Source: Octopus vulgaris | Lineage: Eukaryota | DNA length: 64,000 bases | Reading direction: 5' to 3' | NCBI GenBank assembly: GCA_951406725.2 | Contig: OX597823.1 | Location: 37,696,001 to 37,760,000, forward strand | Part shown: positions 8,901 through 60,469 of the stretch, piece after piece | Layout: the number at the start of each line of letters is the position of its first letter | Position numbering within the stretch: position 1 is the stretch's first letter | Position numbers and translations under genes: made by a program | Notes under the pieces: model-generated | Database searches by the model: none | What the model saw: only the letters and a program-made list of their open reading frames with translations | Told to the model about the DNA's origin: nothing

Positions 8901-8925
8901 GTCTTCATACATATATATATATATA

Positions 8926-10451
8926 CAGTTGCGGCCAAAATGTTCAGAACGGCATTGTTTTCGCCAGAAAAGTAGGTATAAGTTTTTATCAAAGTTGTTT
9001 TATATTCTATAATTTTCACAGACAATAAATACAATATTAATTGTTATTGTCTGAGATTTTGGTGTAATTTGAGAGGATAATACAAAAGTTATGGATGATT
9101 TAGTGATTTACTGCAAAACCCAACTGCAACCTATCAAGTGTTGTGGTCTCAAGAAAAATGGCAAACGGTGCATTTCAGTGATGAATCTAAGTTTATGTTA
9201 TTTGGCTCAGATGGAAAAAGGTACGTTCGTTGAAAAGTAGGTGAAAAATTGTCACCTAAATGTCTTAAGACTAGTGTTAAATTTGGTAGAGGAAGTGTCA
9301 TGGTTTGGGGGATGATATCTGGAGATGGCGTGGGCCCTTTGGTGCGATTACATGGAAAGGTAAATGCAGGAGTTTATATAAACAACTTGTAAAAGATCAT
9401 GTCTTGACTGTGCTGAGAAATTCAACTAAGCGACCACCCATATTCATGCAGGACAATGCCCCATGTCACAAGGCTAAGGTGGTCATGAACTTCCTCAAGG
9501 CTGAAAAGGTTATTATTATGGATTGGCCTGCTCAAAGCCCAGATCTCAATCCTATTGAAAATGTGTAGAATATTCTAGGAAAACGTTCGAAAGCCAGAAA
9601 TCCTAAAACAACCGAGCAATTATGGAATGCCCTTCAGGAAGAATGGAATAAGATCACCTAGCAAGAAATTGAAAGTTTAATTTCCTCATGCAGTCGAAGA
9701 TGTCAAAGTGTGATTGAAGCTAAAGGGCTTCACACTAAATATTAAATAATTCCAGTATTCTCTGTCATTTTTTATTATTTTATTTTTTCAACCGTTCAAG
9801 GCGCATTTTTTCAAGGCGCAGGAGTGGCTGTGTGGTAAGTAGCTTGCTAACCAACCTCATGGTTCCGGGGTTCCGGGTTCAGTCCCACTGCGTGGCATCT
9901 TGGGCAAGTGTCTTCTGCTATAGCCCCGGGCCGACCAATGCCTTGTGAGTGGATTTGGTAGACGGAAACTGAAAGAAGCCTGTCGTATATATGTATATAT
10001 ATGTATGTGTGTGTGTTTATGTGTCTGTGTTTGTTCCCCTAGCATTGCTTGACAACCGATGCTGGTGTGTTTACGTCCCCGTCACTTAGCGGTTCGGCAA
10101 AAAGAGACCGATAGAATAAGTACTGGGCTTACAAAAAGAATAAGTCCCGGGGTCGAGTTGCTCGATTAAAGGCGGTGCTCCAGCATGGCCGCAGTCAAAT
10201 GACTGAAACAAGTAAAAGAGTAAAAGAGAGTAAGAGTTCTCATCATTTTGGCCGCCATGGGTTTTGCAGTAAATCACTAAATCATCCATAACTTTTGTAT
10301 TATCCTCTCAAATTACACCAAAATCTCAGACAATAACAATTAATATTGTATTTATTGTCTGTGAAAATTATAGAATATAAAAGAACTTTGATAAAAACTT
10401 ATACCTCCTTTTCTGGCGAAAACAATGCTGTTCTGAACATTTTGGCCACAA

Positions 10452-10454
<3 letters not shown>
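8926..10454 (+). mobile_element. Tc1 (DD34E) transposon, internally deleted, with about 197-bp TIRs
   Basis: TIRs 8926-9122 and 10258-10454 (CAGTTG...CAACTG) flanked by TA; disrupted transposase at about 9155-9745 with FSDESKF, QDNAPCH and WPAQSPDLNPIE; exactly 34 residues between D and E. Confidence 0.95.
9815..10236 (+). mobile_element. Young full-length tRNA-derived SINE, family A, inserted in the Tc1 element
   Basis: A-box-like GTGGCTGTGTGG, B-box-like GGTTCAGTCCC, CORE-like CTTGGGCAAGTG, internal TA/TG microsatellite, (GTAAAAGA)n tail; CpGs largely retained. Confidence 0.9.
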
Positions 10455-10495
<41 letters not shown>

Positions 10496-21324: not shown

Positions 21325-23589
21325 CATCCGTGTTAGTGTTATGTTGTTGATGGTATTTTGGCACTGAATTTCTTCTTTTTTATAAAATGGTATTTATCGT
21401 CAGCAAATGTAATTTATAACAGTTCTCTTTATGAAAAAACATAGGACATATATATATATATATACACCAGAATATGCATATATTTATATGTATGCGGTAC
21501 ATATACACAGGTTAGCCCAGATAATTCTTTGAGGCTAGTGCAAATAACAAAGTGAATTTGAATTGGTGTAGTAGTTGAACATGAGTAGAGTGAATTTATT
21601 GGATGGAAAGACAAGTTTATAAGAAATGAGATTCAATGTAGTTGATAAGGAAAACGGGCTATGGATACAGCGACAGTATTAATGTGAGAGGAATTACGAA
21701 GTCAGTATTTAAGATAACTTTGTAAGACGGTAGAGTGTATTTGAGGGAATTTAGTTTCTGTTTCTAGCTTATCAAGCAATTCTCGTTGCCTCTAGTTACA
21801 GGTTTTTATATGGTTTAATATATACGTGTGCGTCGTGTAAGACTGCAAGTTACTTCAATTGTACAACAGTTACCTGTGTAAATTAGTATTATTTTCTCGC
21901 ATAAAACATGAATCTTCTCTAATTTATAGGGGCACTGACGATTCAAGAAGAGTAGCTAGATGGGGGACATGAGATCACCGCTTCGGGAGCAAGTGTGAAG
22001 GGCTGCAAATTTTCTTTTGATGGAGCGCAAAAAGTATTTTTGCCCCGAGACTAAAAACTCTTACTACAATAGATTCATGCCTTTCACAGAAGCTTCAATA
22101 GGATTTTTATATATATTTAACGATGGTATATAGCAAATAAACGAGAGGAAGAAAAATATCAATTGAAATGGCCCTTTATTTTCATCATTATAATATATGG
22201 TACAACATCTTCGAGCTACACAATGATTATTTGCTGTTCCATTATCCATTCTGTAGGTAGTTAAATTCACTTTTTGTTGACAGCTAGAAGACTGACAGAA
22301 AAAAGAGAAAGAGTAAGAGTCTACCCCTCTGGGTTGACAAGTAGATTGGTAAAAGTTATATTATCTCGTGATGACAATCCATTAGTGAAGGGAGAGAAAC
22401 AGATGCTGTTTGGTTAGGTACCAAGCGGCCAAAGAGATGGTACCAATTTGGGATTCTGTTTTTTCTAACTAAATTAGTTCAGGCTAAATAAAGGATTTTC
22501 CATCTCTTATCTGCTTATTTAACTTAAAATTGTTAGCTTAAACCATACAATGTATTAAGAGGCATTTGATTCTCATAAGTACAAAAGCTGAGAAAATAGG
22601 AAAATAATTGGTAGACAAATGTAGATTCAGTTTCAAATCCTAGCTTAGAAACTAGGAAGCTGTTTGTTACATTTTATATCATATATATATCTGCTCATTT
22701 CCTTCCTAAAGACATCACGTGCTTATACCTGTCTCCTCTCATAAGCTCGTCCTCCTAGCGTTCATAATAATTTTTCTATCATCTTGACTTAACAACCCTC
22801 GCCATTTGTTTTTACTGTCTTGTTCTCACTGTCCTGTTCTTGTTACCACTTTCACCCTCCACAAAAAATGCCAAATTTTATTTAATTTGCTTTGCGGGAA
22901 GGACTGTTTCAACGAAGTCACGTATTGTCCTTGCCTTTGAAACGCGGAGTAGATGAAACAAGGACAACTGATGAAGGGGAATATACTTTATGTTGCATGT
23001 CTCGTTTCTCTGTTTGTTTTTTTCATTGTTCAAAAAAAAGTACGTTTTCTATGTTTTCGTTTCTCATTGTGTTCAACGTTTTTTTGATGTCCTGTACCCA
23101 TGTATGCATGTATTTATACATATATATGTAGGTATGTACATATATGTATGTATATATGCATATATTTATATATTATTTATATTATTATATATATGACTCT
23201 TTTACTCTTTCTTTTAGTCCCCCTCATGTTTCTTTCTTTTACTCGCTCCCCCTCTCATACATTTCTTGGCCTTTCTTTAACTCCCACTTTTCCTCCTGGT
23301 TTATTTCCTTTGTACCTCTCCCTATGTGCCTTTGATTTCCTCTCTGCAATTACATTGTTCTAAATATTCATGACTGTCTGATAATAAGTTACATGAAACA
23401 CTAACTAGCAATTAATGAAGTCTTTTCAGCTTCAATACAATATTACTTTACTCTACCTTTGGTATTTGAGTACTATTTTTTCCCCACATTGTTTTGCACA
23501 AATGCAGTCTCATGTATGTATGTATACATGCATACATCAATAATCGATCCAAAGTAAGTATTGTTTTCTTTTAAGAATTTTATATATAG

Positions 23590-26365: not shown

Positions 26366-26747
26366 ATATGTTACTCTGTTTAAGGTATTGAGTGATCCTT
26401 CAATTTAGAGTTTGACTGTTTTTATGTATATACTTAGAAGTGTGCACATTTGTGTGTGTGTTTATGTATGACTAAAATCAAATGAGGAAGGGACCTATGC
26501 AGACTCTATAATACTAACATGGTACATTAGTATGCAGGATTAAAATTTTTTCAAGAAAATTGATTATTTTCTTTTAACAATGATTATAGGATTAATGTAA
26601 AATGTTGTAATAAATAATGAATTGGTATATCATAGTTTCATTATGTGTTTCTGCCTTATCAGCAATTTTTGTTTTATGTGAATGGAGAGAAAAGGATTAA
26701 GGATTTTTAGCGAATGACTTGATCTGAGATCGTGTGCTGGAACGAAA

Positions 26748-26989
26748 ACAATTGCAGCATGGAAGGTGTTTATAAGCCATTTAAGAAACACACAAAACCG
26801 TTAGATTCACTTCAACATTTAAATTTAATTTGTCAAAATATTTTCGTCGCTTTGAGACCGCGACCTGTTCACTGACAAAGCTTCATGCGACGAAAATATT
26901 TTGACAAATTAAATTTAAATGTTGAAGTGAATCTAACGGTTTTGTGTGTTTCTTAAATGGCTTATAAACACCTTCCACACTGCAATTGT
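26748..26989. repeat. Long inverted repeat, 103-bp arms with a 36-nt spacer
   Basis: Arms 26748-26850 and 26887-26989, two mismatches counted. Confidence 0.95.
26829..26879 (-). ncRNA. Candidate minimal type I hammerhead ribozyme with G3-C8 core variant
   Basis: Minus strand: TTTGTCA-GTGAACA-G-GTCGC-ggtctcaaa-GCGAC-GAAA-ATAT-TT-TGACAAA (7-bp stem I, 5-bp stem II, palindromic stem III). Confidence 0.55.
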
Positions 26990-27099
26990 GGTCTTAATAT
27001 AGTCAGTTGAATAGGTTTACATTAATGTTTAGCTGTTGCTATTGTTTAGAAAAGTCCAGTGAGATTGATGCTGACAAGGATTGAAATTCTGAATTTGAT

Positions 27100-27355
27100 G
27101 GAATGCATAGCGTCTAGAGAATTACCTCTGTTGGTAACAAAGGTTTCTCCCACAGAGTGAAAGGCAGATTATACAATGCCTGTGTGCAAACGGCCATGCT
27201 ACACAGTAGTGCTACATAGGTTATGACTGCCAAGGACATTCATAGGCTTGAAAGAAATGAAGCTAGTATGCTCCACTGGATATGCAATGTCAGGGTGCAT
27301 GCATGACAGAGTGTAAGCATCTTAAGAGAAAACTTGGGCACAAGAGGCATCAGAA
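27100..27355 (+). mobile_element. RTE RT C-terminal fragment
   Basis: RVKGRLYNACVQTAMLHSS...LERNEASML matches the 29790-30830 frame. Confidence 0.85.
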
Positions 27356-27462
27356 TTTTATTGAGTGGAACATGCAGTATCTATGAGATATACTTCCTAA
27401 AATTTTACATAATTCATTAAAAACCAATAAGGAAAAGAGATTTAATGTTTATTTGTTAGCAA

Positions 27463-27805
27463 GGCACAGGTGTGGTTGTGTGGTTAAGAGACTTGTTTCC
27501 CAAACCCATGGTTTCTAGTTCATTCTCACTCTGTAGCACCTTGGACAAATATCTTCCGTTATAGCCTTGGGCTGACCAAAACCTAGTGAGCAGATTTTAT
27601 TGATGGAAACTGAAAGAAGCCTGTCAGTGTGTGTGTGTGCATACTAGCTGTGTCATTCATTTCCAATCTTCTGTGTACACATGTCTAGTCATGGGGAAAC
27701 AGATGAGGATTGGTGACCAAAAGGACACCTGACCAGAGAATATCTGCCTCAATAAACTCTACCTCATGCAAGCATGGAAAAGGAACATTAAAAACAATGA
27801 TGATT
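27463..27805 (+). mobile_element. SINE with family A-like head and RTE-derived tail
   Basis: gtggttgtgtggttaag head, accttggacaaat CORE-like block, tail catgcaagcatggaaaaggaacattaaaaacaatgatgat. Confidence 0.75.
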
Positions 27806-27899
27806 ATGTCAAAATAAATGTTAAATTAGATAGTGATTTATAGTCTTATCCCTCATTACAGAAACATTGCATTCCTGAAGGTCTTGCATTATCATTATT

Positions 27900-28110
27900 A
27901 AACTGACAGAATCATTGCCACGCTGGGCAAAATGCTTAATGGCATTTCATCCATCTTTATGTTCTGAGTTCAAATTCCACCAAAGTCAATTTTGCCTTTC
28001 ATCTTCTCAGGGCCAATAAAATAAGTGCCAATTAAGTACTAAGGTCGATGTAAACAACTTACTCCCTCCCCAAAATGCTGGCATTGTGTCAAAACTTGAA
28101 ATCATTATTA
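27900..28110 (+). mobile_element. Old SINE with Nin-like domain
   Basis: gttctgagttcaaattccacc...tttgcctttcatc...aataaaataagtgcca. Confidence 0.7.
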
Positions 28111-28478
28111 AACTGGCGCTTAGAACATAAATTAACATGGAATTTTGATGAACGGTTTAAATTTAGGTCACTTTTAAAGAGGAAATTTGTATCATAAATT
28201 CAGGATGGTCTAGGGTAGGCTGGTATCAAAAGGAATAAAGCATTGTTTAAAATGACATTGTTTGCACCTGTGTTTTGGCCCAGCTTTAAAACCATACTTT
28301 AACCTGGTCATCATTGAATCTGTGATCAATCCACACCTTCCCACTTTCAGAGATAGATACATATGAGTAGGTATGTGTATTAAAATACATTGTTTACTCA
28401 TTCTTATATAAACTTAATATACTTATGTTCATGTATTTGTTTTGCAAGATTCCTGATGTGAAACCATGTGTTGAAACA

Positions 28479-28770
28479 GATATTGTTATACTTGAGGAGG
28501 GTCATATTTTGCCAATTAAACACATGCACTATATATTTTGTCTTCACTCCAGCTTTATTATTATTATTTTAGTTTCTTTATCAAAGCTCTTTTATCACAC
28601 ATCCTGTGACCTCTTCAGCAACTCTCTATCCCATATGTCTCTTCTTGTTCTGCTTATTCCATTTTGTCTTTTTCAAGGACTAAAATAGTAATAAAGCTGA
28701 AGTGAAGACCAAATATATATTGTGTGTGTTTAATTGGCAAAATATTATCATCCCCAAGTATTAATACATC
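28479..28770. repeat. Diverged inverted repeat, about 90-bp arms
   Basis: tattttgccaattaaacaca...gtcttcactccagctttatta (28505-28560) is mirrored at 28688-28744. Confidence 0.8.
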
Positions 28771-29000
28771 AATCTTAATATTCTTTTATTTGTTTCAGTA
28801 ATTTAACTGTGGCCATGCTGGAGCACCCACCTTGAAGGGTTTTAGTTGAACAATTGACTTCAGGACTTACTCTTTGTAAGCCTAGTACTTATTCTATCGG
28901 TCTCTTTTGCTGAACTGCTAAGTTACGGAGACGTAAACACACCAGCACCAGTTGTCAAGCAGTGATAGGGAGACAAACACAGATACAAAATAACACACAG

Positions 29001-29039
<39 letters not shown>

Positions 29040-29111
29040 CCGGAGTAAACACATAAATGTGAAACAAGGTGGAAAAAAGAGTACTCAAATACTAGTGGTA
29101 GAGTAATATGT

Positions 29112-29247
29112 TTTATTTAAAGCAGCAGAAAATTCAACAAAACCTGTTACTCTGAGTTTCCCGTTGCCGTTCAAAAACTGTCCGATGAACGGCAACGGGA
29201 AACTCAGAGTAACAGGTTTTGTTGAATTTTCTGCTGCTTTAAATAAA
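29112..29247. repeat. Perfect inverted repeat, 62-bp arms with a 12-nt spacer, in a Penelope-like short repeat
   Basis: Arms 29112-29173 and 29186-29247; flank 29041-29120 is related to 23440-23500. Confidence 0.95.
29178..29215 (+). ncRNA. Candidate minimal type I hammerhead-like motif with variant core
   Basis: CTGT-CCGATGA-A-CG-GCAA-CG-G-GAAA-CTC-A-GAG-TA-ACAG; GUA cleavage triplet, GNRA loop II, U4C deviation. Confidence 0.5.
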
Positions 29248-29256
29248 GTATATATA

Positions 29257-30830
29257 TCATCATCATCATCATCATCATCATCGTTTAACGTCCGTTCTCC
29301 ATGCTAGCATGGGTTGGACGGTTTGACCGGGGATCTGGGAAGCCAGAAGGCTGCACCAGGCTCCAGTCTTATCTGGCAATGTTTCTACAGCTGGATGCCC
29401 TTCCTAACGCCAACCACTCCATGAGTGTAGTGGGTGCTTTTTACGTGCCACCCGCACAGGTGCCAGGCAAGGCTGGCAACGGCCACGGTCGGATTGGTGC
29501 AATTTACATGCCACCGGCACGGAAGCCAGTCGAGGCGGCGCTGGCATCGGCCACGATTCGGATAGTGCTTTTTACGTACCACCAGTCCAGGGGTCCTGGC
29601 ATCTGCCGGGTGCCAGTCATAGGATTGGTTCAATTTCGGTTTCGATTTCGATTTCACTTGCCCCAACATGTCTTCGCAAGCAAAGGGGGTTGGCATGGGT
29701 GCCTGTCGTCGGATGAGGTTCGATATCGACTTTGCTTGCCTCAACAGGTCTTTGTGTCCAAGGGAGGAAAGGCATGCATAAGTCTGGGCTCACTTGTCCT
29801 GCCTGGTCTTCTCACTTACAGCATATTTCCAAAGGTCTCGGTCGCTGGTCATTTCCTCAGTGAGGCCTAAAGTTCGAAGGTCGTGCTTCACCACCTCGTC
29901 CCAGGTTTTTCTGGGTCTACCTCTTCCACGGGTTCCCTCAACTGCTAGGGATTGGCACTTTTTCACACACCTATCTTCATCCATTCTCGCCACATGACCA
30001 TACCAGCACAATCGTCTTTCTTGCACACCACAACTGATGCTTCTTAGGTACAACATTTCTCTCAAGGTACTAACGCTCTGTTGAGTATGTACACTGACAT
30101 TACACATCCATCGGAGCATACTGGCTTCATTCCTCGCGAGCTTACGCATGTCCTCAGCAGTCATGGCCCATGTTTCACTGCCATGTAGCATGGCTGTTCG
30201 TACACATGCATCATACAGTCTGCCTTTTACTCTGAGCGAGAGGCCTTTAGTCACCAGCAGAGGTAAGAGCTCCCTAAACTTTGCCCAGGCTATTCTTATT
30301 CTGGCAGTTACACTTTCAATGCACCCACCCCCACTACTGACTTGGTCACCTAGATAACGGAAGCTATCAACTACTTCTAGTTTTTCCCCCTGGAAAGTGA
30401 CGGAAGTTGTTTTCTGCAGATTTTTGGAGGTTAATGCTCCCGAGCATCTGCCACATACAAAAACTATCTTCCCAGTTAGCCTACCTTTGACATTGCTGCA
30501 CCTCTTATGTGTCCATAGCTTACACTGGGTACATCTTATAGAGTTTCTACCTACACCTTTTCTACAGATCGAGCAGGGCCATCTTCCTGAAGACATTTGT
30601 GGATTGTCTACCTTCCTACTTATTAGTACTTTGGTTTTAGCTAGGTTGACTCTAAGGCCCCTCGATTCTAAACCCTCCTTCCACACCTGGAACTTCTCCT
30701 CCAGTTCTGATAGTGACTCAGCAATTAGAGCAAGGTCGTCAGCATAGAGGAGCTCCCAGGGGCAACCTGTCTTGAATTCCTCCGTAATTGCCTGGAGGAC
30801 TATGATAAATAGGAGGGGGCTGAGTACTGA
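29257..30830 (-). mobile_element. Young 5'-truncated RTE LINE with an open RT C-terminal frame, 3' UTR and (ATG)n tail
   Basis: Uninterrupted frame 29790-30830: SVLSPLLF, LLYADDL, VNLAKTK, FRYLG, HGSETW, RGRGRPRKTW. The ORF-track N-terminus upstream of 30830 is microsatellite. Confidence 0.95.
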
Positions 30831-30866
<36 letters not shown>

Positions 30867-30893
30867 GTGTGCGTGCGTGTGTGCGCGCGCACG

Positions 30894-30931
<38 letters not shown>

Positions 30932-33259
30932 TACATACAAACAAATACAGGTTTCTTTCAGTTTCCGTCTACCAAATTTACTCACAAGGCTTTAGTCGGC
31001 CCGAGGCTATAGTAGAAGACTGCCCAAGGTGCTACACAGAGGGATTGAACTCAGACTCATGTGATTCAGAAGAAGCTTCTTACTACACAACCACGAATGC
31101 AACTATATATTTAGCTTAACATTATATTTTCCTTTTATTTCTAATATTCTTAATTTGCATATTATATTTAAAATCCTTTTATCAATTATCTGAGGTTTGT
31201 TCAAGCCAGTATATTTGTGACTTATAGTACTTGATAGACTATATATAGTCTTTAGAAACAATTTTATTGACTGCCAACTTTCAAAGTATACTTGCCTATC
31301 TGCCTCTATGTAGGTGTGTGAAAAAACTAAGACATCCACACATACACTTTATATTTGTAGTGCTTACTAAAATATTAATTAATTAATAACCTATCATACA
31401 TGGTTTTGCCTTGAATTTCTTTCATCTCTATGTCTGAATTAGTCAATCAGTATTTTTGTTATTAACTCTTCCATTATTACTATTATTCAAGTTTTCTTCC
31501 GTGTTAAACGGTTTGTAACATTAATTATGTAAACAGGATGTTGAAGAACCACCAGACAAAATGCCTTGTTATATTTAGTTATGTTCTTTAATGTTTCAAA
31601 TTGAAATCCTGCTAGTCCTGACTTTGCTGTTCACTCTTCTGGGGTTGATAAATAAGTGCTTCATGAAGTGTTGGATTAATTTGATTGACAACATTTTTCT
31701 TTTACTGAAGTTTGTGGAAGGACTGAAAGGGTATCTATGTCTGCTCATGGAAGAATTTTTCACACACCACAGACTTAGCCCAAATGCTTGCAAGAAAGTG
31801 AACTCTTCCACAGTACCTGTAGTAGTATTAAACCGGGTAGCAGATCACAATTACTATCCGTGTTGGCCATGATGGGATTTGAACTCAGGACGCAAACAGT
31901 CAGAACAAATGCTTCAAGGCATATAGTCTGACCCCCTTATAGTTCTGCCACTCTCGAATGATAGCTTCTTTTTTTTATTTTTAACCCTTGGAAGGATGGA
32001 AAACAGGCCTCAGACCTCAGCAGGATTTGATCTCAGAGCATAGAGAATCAGAACAAAATACCACAAGACATTCTATCAAATGCAGATATAGCACATAGTA
32101 ATTATTGATTAATTGAATCAAAGATATCATAAATTAATGGCAGAATCAGTGGAGCACCATACCAAATGCCTTGTAGTTTTTAGCTAGGTTCGATTTTTGC
32201 CTTCCATTCTTCTTAGTGTGATAAACAAAGTTCCAGACAAGTAGCAGGGGTTATGTAATTGAATGTGTGGCCTGGTGCCAAGCCATTTTGCTGTGTGCTA
32301 TGTTTAATTATTCATTTTTAACCAGGTCTACATCCATTTTTCAATATTGGTCTAGAAGGATGGGTTTTGTAAAGTTCACTCTTAAAATATGAATTATTGG
32401 GATAACAACAACAGCAATTCTTTTTATAATAAAATAATAGAATCCAATAAAATAATGATGTTCCATGACAACACAAGCTAATACCAATTGTAAAATAATG
32501 GAATAAATATCATGATGCGAGGAAAAAAATAATCTAATGTTTCAGACATATCAGGTGGGAGAAGTGAGAATGCAAGGCAAGACATGGAACGTCTTGCGTT
32601 ATGGGGCATATGTTCCCTCATGGATTATATCTTGGCTTTTGAAGTATATCTTGCTTTATGGAGTTTATCATGTCTTATGGACCATATTTTGACTTGCATA
32701 TATACTTCTACCTCATATGACCTAGCCCTTATCACCTCCCTCCCTTTTTTAACAGATCTGGATCCTAGTACAAACTTTACCACCCCTTCCTTACACTGTA
32801 CTCCCTCCCACCTCTTTCTTCTGCCAAATACTTTACTTCCTTATTATTTTCTCATTACCAATTTTGGAACCTCAACAACAAAGAAAGGCAAATATCTAAA
32901 CCATTGGACATTTCTTCCTTATGGCATAAAGTGGATTATTCCCCCTGTCATATTCTGTTTATAGTTGAATCCTCTTGAACCTCCTAACTAATGAACCATG
33001 ATAAACATTTCTGAATTGACATACATCACAAATCACAATGGCTCTTACATTTGTTAATATTTTCAAATATCAAAATCTGGTGTCAAATTTAACCTGACTG
33101 TGCTTCAGCTCTTAATATTAGAAAGTCTAAGGGTAGTGAGCTGACAGATAGGACCCAACACTCAGATAAATACAGGAGTACGTCTTCCATACTGCCATAC
33201 CCACAGTTTATATTTATATACAGGTAGCATAGTTAGTGGGCTGTTATGTTGATGCATAT

Positions 33260-59066: not shown

Positions 59067-60185
59067 TCACACCTTGAGTTTATGAACCCATCGCCTGTGA
59101 TTATGTAGCTGTATGAGATTGCCTAAGCCTCGTCCACATTCTCGACAATGAACAGGTGTGCAATTTCTCTTTCGGTGCTGATCAAAGTAGTATTTGCATA
59201 TAAAACAATATTTACACTTGTCACAGAAAAACAGGCCTTCACCATTATGCTTCTTTTTAATGTGCAGCTTTAGAGAATATAACCGAAAGAAGGTTTTTTT
59301 ACACTTGCTGCATTGGTGCTTGGCTTCTTCATGCACACCAATCATATGCCGCTGGCAGGCAGATCGATTGGGAAACTTCATGCCACATATTGCACATGTG
59401 TCAGAGGTCACAGCATATTTTTTGGGTACTGTTGAAACAATTTTTACAACCTCTTTCTCATCAGAACTGCACACTTCCTCAGTGACTGTATACTCTTCCC
59501 CTATAGTTTGTACCCCAACATCGAGGTATGTATTCCCATAGCCATCAGCTGAGACAACTTCTAGAGGAATGCAACTTTCTTCAGTTTCAATGTCCTTCTG
59601 AATAAGAATAATGTTAGATTCAGCTGGATTAAGCATTTCATGCACCCTCATAGAATTATCAACAGCTTCAACAAGGCATTCTTTATCTGCAGGTTCACCA
59701 GAAGCAGTTACTGTTTCTTCATTTTCTACTTTTACCTCAGAATCAGAAACCAAACTAATCAGTTGAATTTGCATATGCCATTCATCTCCCAACTCACCAA
59801 CTGTTTGTATATTTTCTGTTTTCACATCAGTGACAAGACCTGTGGTATCTATATCACCATTGGCAACCATCTGCATATGCCAGGCAGTATCCAATTCTGT
59901 GTAGCCAGATTCAATTACAGTCTGTTGTGACACAACAGAATCATCGTCTGATGGCTGATTGAATGATAAACAGCCCTCAAGTATTACTGTGTTTTCATCA
60001 GTGACACCATCTGATGAAATAATAGTTTCTGTTTCTTCATCAGGGCTCTGGTTAGCAATTAGCATTTCAGAATTGTTTCCTTTTTCTAAATTAAGAGTGC
60101 AGTCAAGATCTGAGGACTCTAAGTTGCTGTCACGGATATTTGAGATAATCAAGCCACACTCATGGCTTGCCGAGTCAACTTCCAT
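59067..60185 (-). CDS. C2H2 zinc-finger protein, 372 aa, acidic N-terminus and four C-terminal fingers
   Basis: Fingers CAIC..H.IGVH, CSKC..H.KKKH, CDKC..H.KRNC (C2HC) and CREC..H.RWVH; acceptor tttttatAG before 60226; in-frame stop upstream of the ATG; donor CAG|GTGAGT after 59016. Confidence 0.9.
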   Translation of the reverse strand: MEVDSASHECGLIISNIRDSNLESSDLDCTLNLEKGNNSEMLIANQSPDEETETIISSDGVTDENTVILEGCLSFNQPSDDDSVVSQQTVIESGYTELDTAWHMQMVANGDIDTTGLVTDVKTENIQTVGELGDEWHMQIQLISLVSDSEVKVENEETVTASGEPADKECLVEAVDNSMRVHEMLNPAESNIILIQKDIETEESCIPLEVVSADGYGNTYLDVGVQTIGEEYTVTEEVCSSDEKEVVKIVSTVPKKYAVTSDTCAICGMKFPNRSACQRHMIGVHEEAKHQCSKCKKTFFRLYSLKLHIKKKHNGEGLFFCDKCKYCFICKYYFDQHRKRNCTPVHCRECGRGLGNLIQLHNHRRWVHKLKV

Positions 60186-60469
60186 AATGATGTTTCATAC
60201 CGCAAGAAATAAATATATGTTTGCACCTATAAAAAGATGAAATAAAAAACAATATCATTACATTTGAAAATCACAATACCTGCAACATCATTATCAATAT
60301 AGCGAAGGATGCCATCATGCATTGCACAATCTGCAGTCCCTACCCTTCCTACTGTAATTGATTCTTTTAGTCCATTTTCTACAGAATCTCTACAAAATCC
60401 ACTTTTCTTCACTTCTTGGCCAAAACGATTTTGTGAACAGTATTCCTGCCAAGACAACCTCTACATTTC

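Follow-up and report, generated by a model that had tools for sequence, protein, structure and literature searches.

The two palindromes described here, in a 64-kb stretch of Octopus vulgaris DNA (the window), are unremarkable, dead-end insertions from two abundant Penelope-type families. We propose, with a probability of roughly 0.65, that each is a single insertion of a Penelope-like element (PLE) in which two short pLTR copies, set head to head, were produced by twin priming on the RNA leader, with both cDNAs running toward the cap.

Two palindromes and their coding families

Palindrome A has 103-nt arms (26748-26850 and 26887-26989) with two mismatches and a 36-nt spacer, and palindrome B has 62-nt arms (29112-29173 and 29186-29247) with no mismatches and a 12-nt spacer. 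As the original prediction held, both sets of arms are present and the palindromes are mutually unrelated, with no similarity beyond the chance level (best blastn hit, E = 1.0). The prediction that one arm plus spacer carries a whole hammerhead motif while the other arm is cut off inside it also stood at both loci, with the correction that the motif of A lies on the minus strand; that of B is on the plus strand. The opposite arm begins at helix II (3' strand) in A and within the core in B. A plus-strand fold of palindrome A has poor helices and was discarded as a hammerhead; the minus strand fits the descriptor used to search for type I motifs. This descriptor, composed after the motifs were known and permitting G3-C8 and U4C cores, matched exactly twice in the 64-kb window, once in each palindrome, compared to a mean of 0.05 matches in 100 dinucleotide shuffles. 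An Rfam scan of the palindromes returned no hammerhead match at E ≤ 1, only microRNA look-alikes, and motif A folds with a z-score of only -1.2. The arm coordinates given earlier were correct, but the full elements are longer, each continuing through one tailed arm, to 26708 in A and 29040 in B.

The long arm of A (26708..26888, minus strand), delimited by alignment to the ORF-bearing copy L371, is pLTR sequence that begins 7 nt within the family boundary, takes in the complete hammerhead motif, passes the short end (26748), and stops 40 nt into the ~59-nt tail, so that the last 19 nt are missing. The predicted type I hammerhead (26829..26879, minus strand; from sequence, fold, descriptor, and column counts) would consist of a 7-bp helix I, a core of G3-U4-G5-A6-A7-C8-A9 with one extra G before helix II, a 5-bp helix II, GAAA, and a palindromic helix III, with a predicted cut at 26836/26835. 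The short, tail-less arm (26887..26989, plus strand) has its first base at the helix II 3' strand, and the two arms overlap by 2 nt (GC). In B, the long arm (29040..29173, minus strand) begins in the hammerhead core, passes the short end, includes all 70 nt of the tail, and reaches (TA)n; it is 95% identical to the 5' pLTR and tail of the full-length copy L373. The tail-less arm of B (29172..29248, plus strand) extends from the helix I start to a (TA)n end, again with a 2-nt overlap (CA). The predicted type I hammerhead of B (29172..29221, plus strand; from descriptor and column counts) has helix I, a core of C3-C4-G5-A6-U7-G8-A9 (U4C), a 2- to 3-bp helix II with a GNRA loop, GAAAC, and a palindromic helix III, with a predicted cut at 29211/29212. 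A (TA)n target microsatellite lies to the left of B (29001..29039), with a shorter TA run on the other side (29249-29257).

Elsewhere in the window are an isolated 47-nt piece of the family B tail (23448-23494, 87%), a fragment of a LINE reverse transcriptase, with a PHD-like stretch, that is unrelated to either family (29793-30968, minus strand), a 375-codon open frame with C2H2 zinc fingers that is probably a host gene exon (59070-60194, minus strand), and a pair of 216-nt arms that are 98% complementary and separated by 1,135 nt (8907-9122 and 10258-10473).

Exact 25-mer matches number 5,916 for family A and 5,462 for family B in the genome. The arms in the window are 92 to 95% identical to pLTRs of ORF-bearing copies, which identifies the palindromes as stubs of two coding Penelope-like families. 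The 64-kb window itself contains no PLE ORF; the adjoining GIY-YIG/RT Penelope ORFs that the original prediction said should be looked for were found in other genomic copies. In family A, an ORF encoding an RT and a GIY-YIG domain (PF01541, E = 1.8e-5) lies upstream of the pLTR. These ORFs span 733 to 1,025 codons with RT motifs, a CX3CxxC linker, and the GIY-YIG domain, the RT motifs being recognized by eye with no Pfam RT match. The linker fits the CX2-5CxxC pattern and the C-terminal endonuclease has CCHH, as in Neptune and Nematis, so family A is Neptune/Nematis-like and could belong to either of the two clades. Fetched family A copies had a downstream pLTR and inverted copies only, with no pLTR-tail-ORF continuity.

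Seven of eight fetched family B copies are organized as pLTR-tail-67 nt-ATG-711-aa ORF-3' UTR-pLTR, and the eighth lacks both the upstream pLTR and the ATG. Because of this order, the B tail is part of the mRNA leader. The B protein matched nothing in Pfam or the PDB, and its Atlas look-alikes belong to HTH_animal/GIY-YIG families. It has RWK, DKT, a CxCX5C linker, no CCHH, and CxxC and CxH around E and N, and the family targets (TA)n, all of which are Hydra clade features. On these motifs and its resemblance to the Hydra alignment by eye, family B is probably a member of the Hydra clade. An intact 727-codon frame persists in many copies (L373-L380 and others), which marks this Hydra-type family as young and possibly still active. 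Most B stubs have the U4C core, and the fetched full-length B copies have U4.

The features expected of EN+ PLEs were all found: one ORF with RT and GIY-YIG linked to the repeat, pLTRs from a partial tandem arrangement (on both sides of the ORF in B, 7/8), an inverted 5'-truncated copy with an optional 3' tail, and, at the motif level, a hammerhead in the pLTR. The suggestion of a Penelope origin is therefore supported, by RT/GIY-YIG ORFs linked to family A and a Hydra-motif 711-aa ORF linked to family B. The further suggestion of distinct non-autonomous or retrozyme-like elements is not, as the palindromes are 5'-end stubs of families with coding copies in the same genome.

Arm pairing and breakpoints across copies

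Sites were sampled in chromosome order from pattern lists, giving 68 A sites and 65 B sites from 100 matches listed for each family. One site (L215), where the inversion takes in the flanks, was left out; five long-spaced pairs of the same lists were included, and a long-plus-long site (L182) was counted despite its inverted flanks. Statistics were computed on these position-ordered lists, and a similarity query starting at the window junction was biased toward that junction. Each family has two fixed 3' ends, ~59 nt (A) and 70 nt (B) apart, mostly in (TA)n. Head-to-head pairs were present at 41 A sites and 43 B sites, and single arms at 27/68 and 22/65 sites, respectively, including long-armed insertions that the pairing script missed.

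Where both ends could be classed, a tail-less arm was joined to a tailed arm in 32 of 34 A pairs (P = 3e-8 versus free choice) and 39 of 40 B pairs (P = 4e-11). With similarity-picked loci added, the counts were 57/59 and 101/102. Both copies in the window obey this rule, as do the ORF-bearing insertions L370-L372. The tail-less arm reached further 5' in 20 of 29 (A) and 21 of 34 (B) untied pairs, and the spacer is held by either arm, the tail-less one more often. The arms overlapped by a few bases at 17 of 32 A junctions and 31 of 39 B junctions. Junctions vary between sites: the exact B junction of the window has eight matches versus 5,462 for the family, and that junction occurs in both arm layouts (7 versus 4). 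This low count and the two layouts show that the palindromes do not spread as units.

The two arms of one site resemble each other. They differed at 10.5% of subfamily sites in A, compared to 41.7% after shuffling, and at 6.7% compared to 43.9% in B. Rare variants were common to both arms 12 times versus 0.5 (A) and 8 times versus 0.2 (B). No clear cross-subfamily pair, as from two RNA templates of different subfamilies, was seen. Gene conversion, or periods in which only one subfamily was active, could account for the shared alleles in place of a common RNA molecule. At one site (L013), a diverged family B-like palindrome directly adjoins a family A copy in a single TA run, which suggests a target preference common to both families. 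At another (L132), the junction filler between the arms reads like telomere-type repeat units.

The original prediction placed the fold-back at the ribozyme. Arm ends do fall nonrandomly relative to the motif in the sampled copies, yet they do not track the cut site. Ends within -3 to +7 of a boundary that lies upstream of helix I, by 16 nt in A and 7 nt in B, numbered 43/109 (A) and 43/108 (B), while ends no more than 3 nt from the predicted cut site numbered only 1/109 and 3/108. A further 21/109 and 28/108 lie inside the motif. These calls are accurate to a few bases, and the 11 A ends placed at position 42 are due in part to alignments dropping off in a variable stretch. The whole motif is kept in ~60% of arms, and the layout seen in the window, with one motif whole and the other cut inside, is a minority (7/41 in A and 10/43 in B). 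Fold-back at the ribozyme is thus not supported; the ends pile up just upstream of it, which suggests that the ribozyme has no role in setting them. Their closeness to the predicted ribozyme is likely positional, the motif filling the first 50 to 60 nt of the RNA.

In family A the templated base immediately preceding the boundary is C. Among the first 100 of 646 non-C matches listed, 79 have a G at this position, versus 13 of 48 non-C cases elsewhere (P = 2e-9). This G is also found in 11 of 13 single-arm A copies abutting host DNA, and in an independent A sample it was present in 8/16 versus 13/63 (P = 0.03). In family B the corresponding counts, 6/13 versus 23/78, did not differ significantly (P = 0.33), and single B cases carry the boundary G, one of them on both arms. 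L352/L353 have an extra G on both arms. Reverse transcriptases can copy the cap as an extra G. The untemplated G at the A boundary therefore suggests a cap signature, and the boundary is likely the capped start of the RNA.

Proposed two-site priming and its alternatives

We propose that a single RNA leader would offer two fixed internal sites at which the two nicked target strands prime reverse transcription, a dimeric RT-endonuclease presumably priming once per site. The cDNAs would extend to the capped 5' end, the boundary corresponding to the capped transcription start in the pLTR, and their ends would then be joined by 1- to 12-nt overlaps or filler, mostly by short overlaps. The template would be uncleaved RNA, so the hammerhead would be only a passenger in the first 50 to 60 nt that does not set breakpoints. 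With the tail in the leader and an RNA starting in the pLTR, internal priming would copy only the first 85 to 155 nt (B) or 150 to 205 nt (A), and stub lengths would equal the portion of the leader that can be copied from the internal sites. The stubs would be dead ends, generated anew at each site. The nonsignificant boundary G in family B, the many single-arm sites, and the equal use of start sites on both strands in vitro (PMC11167929) weigh against this scheme. That this is the general record of PLE integration, with one dimeric RT-endonuclease using two fixed sites of a single capped leader, one per strand, and cDNAs extended to the cap and end joined, we hold at about even odds.

The main rival, itself unlikely, is snap-back followed by deletion, which resembles the self-priming scheme of PMC3846280. 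A cDNA or antisense template would fold back near the 5' end and be copied into a hairpin, which the endonuclease would resolve at the short site, the center being moved by later deletions. Such a hairpin would account for the alleles common to both arms and for the one-tail rule, and its steps are in print as self-priming on an antisense template (PMC3846280) and as tail resolution by the endonuclease (PMC8557442). The few-base overlaps at most junctions fit it as well. However, a tail-less arm that reaches further 5' cannot come from simple snap-back of a tailed cDNA, and the more frequent placement of the spacer on the tail-less arm counts against the idea, although a hairpin trimmed by an off-center deletion might also end up with its spacer on either arm. 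The occurrence of the window's B junction in both layouts is likewise difficult to reconcile with folding, as is the extra G on both arms of L352/L353; the G sits at the sense 5' end, as expected of a sense, capped template.

It is less probable still that the boundary reflects RNA processing or pausing, with a 3' splice site lying immediately before helix I or RT stalling at the ribozyme helices. Both boundaries do resemble 3' splice sites: A combines a CTAAC that resembles a branch point with a pyrimidine run and a CAG ahead of the ATG, and B has a pyrimidine run and a TAG at helix I. A Drosophila virilis intron is described as ending at helix I (PMC4209133), and the ends inside the motif could mark pausing. 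Against splicing, 30 fetched A copies have no common upstream exon before the boundary, and the ends peak before the putative exon start, by 2 nt in A and 7 nt in B. Neither process is expected to add an untemplated G, and a TATA-like run lies ~24 to 30 nt upstream in A.

The reading of the palindromes as separate non-autonomous retrozyme-like elements, inverted by ribozyme cleavage or circularization and spreading as palindromic units, is largely refuted and has very little probability left. It would fit the arm cut inside the motif in both window copies, and pLTR-derived retrozymes exist (bioRxiv 10.64898/2026.07.22.740005). The animal non-LTR retrozymes described there are, like the stubs, non-coding, pLTR related, and endowed with a type I hammerhead, but they are tandem units with a ribozyme in each. 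We found single head-to-head stubs of coding families and no tandem monomer array or tandem hammerhead units at the window sites or among the copies listed. Arm ends avoid the cut site, the arms match pLTRs of ORF-bearing copies, and the junctions vary by site.

An assembly artifact or a TIR DNA transposon (MITE), either of which would have undone the original prediction and might be evoked by inverted repeats so long and near-perfect, has a negligible chance of being correct, since the elements have unequal arms, two fixed ends, variable centers, and linked RT ORFs in place of equal terminal repeats around a fixed center, and since contigs from two independent runs and two organisms connect both unique flanks of A to the element ends at single-copy depth, while one contig crosses a B-type junction. 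No contig bridged the B locus through its repeat flanks. The A insertion (26708-26989) is common to the contigs of the second organism, and either it predates the split or the two are very close. Family sequence is also present as contigs in runs guessed to be RNA, with no tie to the window locus.

Relation to known Penelope-like elements

The layout agrees with published EN+ PLEs (PMC8557442, PMC3846280, PMC2377424) in its hammerhead-bearing pLTR, inverted 5'-truncated copy, one-end tail, (TA)n targets, and promoter in the pLTR, the last located by PMC2377424; PMC8557442 already describes inverted, truncated pLTRs, tails on one side, and TA targeting. The tails are longer here (~59 and 70 nt versus 30 to 40 nt), and those accounts present the layout without counts of short-plus-long pairing or ends mapped against a cap signature. 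The Hydra clade of PMC8557442, which includes Hydra-1_Obim of Octopus bimaculoides, shares with family B the RWK, DKT, CxCX5C, and CxxC/CxH motifs, the lack of CCHH, the YRDDG RT motif, and TA targeting. By eye, family B is a different family from Hydra-1_Obim, with different protein letters and a different hammerhead, and unlike it has clear pLTRs and U4C in most copies. Motif B is very similar to a hammerhead in the Hydra supplement of that paper, in the record just before Hydra-1_Obim.

The closest experimental parallel is with Poseidon_Ac of the green anole, from a clade different from families A and B. In vitro, the Poseidon protein nicks and extends both strands on uncleaved RNA, and its RT starts internally on the RNA, at two sites flanking the tail (PMC11167929). 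Two tail-bounding start sites in the leader, extension of both strands, AT-rich targets, and an uncleaved template are the points of likeness to what we propose. The start-site analysis in PMC11167929 describes no strand difference in site use, does not report paired use, and does not model inverted products.

The G3-C8 core is present in nearly all family A arms (G in 68/72 and C in 67/72; window 26866-26872, minus strand), and the subfamilies differ in loop II and at positions beyond the helices. Judged from the sequences, family A would carry a natural, high-copy form of a swap usually made as a rescue mutant, and which gives partial rescue of activity in a mutant (PMC11167929). U4C, as in motif B, reduces hammerhead activity (PMC3088659). 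The minimal PLE hammerheads of PMC4209133 are similarly type I, with an extra base between 9 and 10.1 and a palindromic helix III, which implies dimers, and opposite-strand pairs 100 to 700 bp apart are already described there. The natural swap given in that account is U3-A8, in contrast to the fixed G3-C8 pair of family A. A search of the available literature returned no account of twin priming, strict pairing, cap G, or natural G3-C8 in PLEs; G3-C8 may already be covered in the study of hammerhead variants of PLEs by Lunse et al. (2017).

The family statistics bear on the open question of how PLEs make inverted ends and tails. The near-strict pairing rule and a start site at base level are a modest addition, testable in the existing in vitro system. 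If correct, twin priming would account for why the pLTR is inverted, why only one side has a tail, and why a tandem read-through RNA is needed, and family A would also provide a natural, high-copy G3-C8 hammerhead. Thousands of such hairpins, when transcribed, could feed RNA editing.
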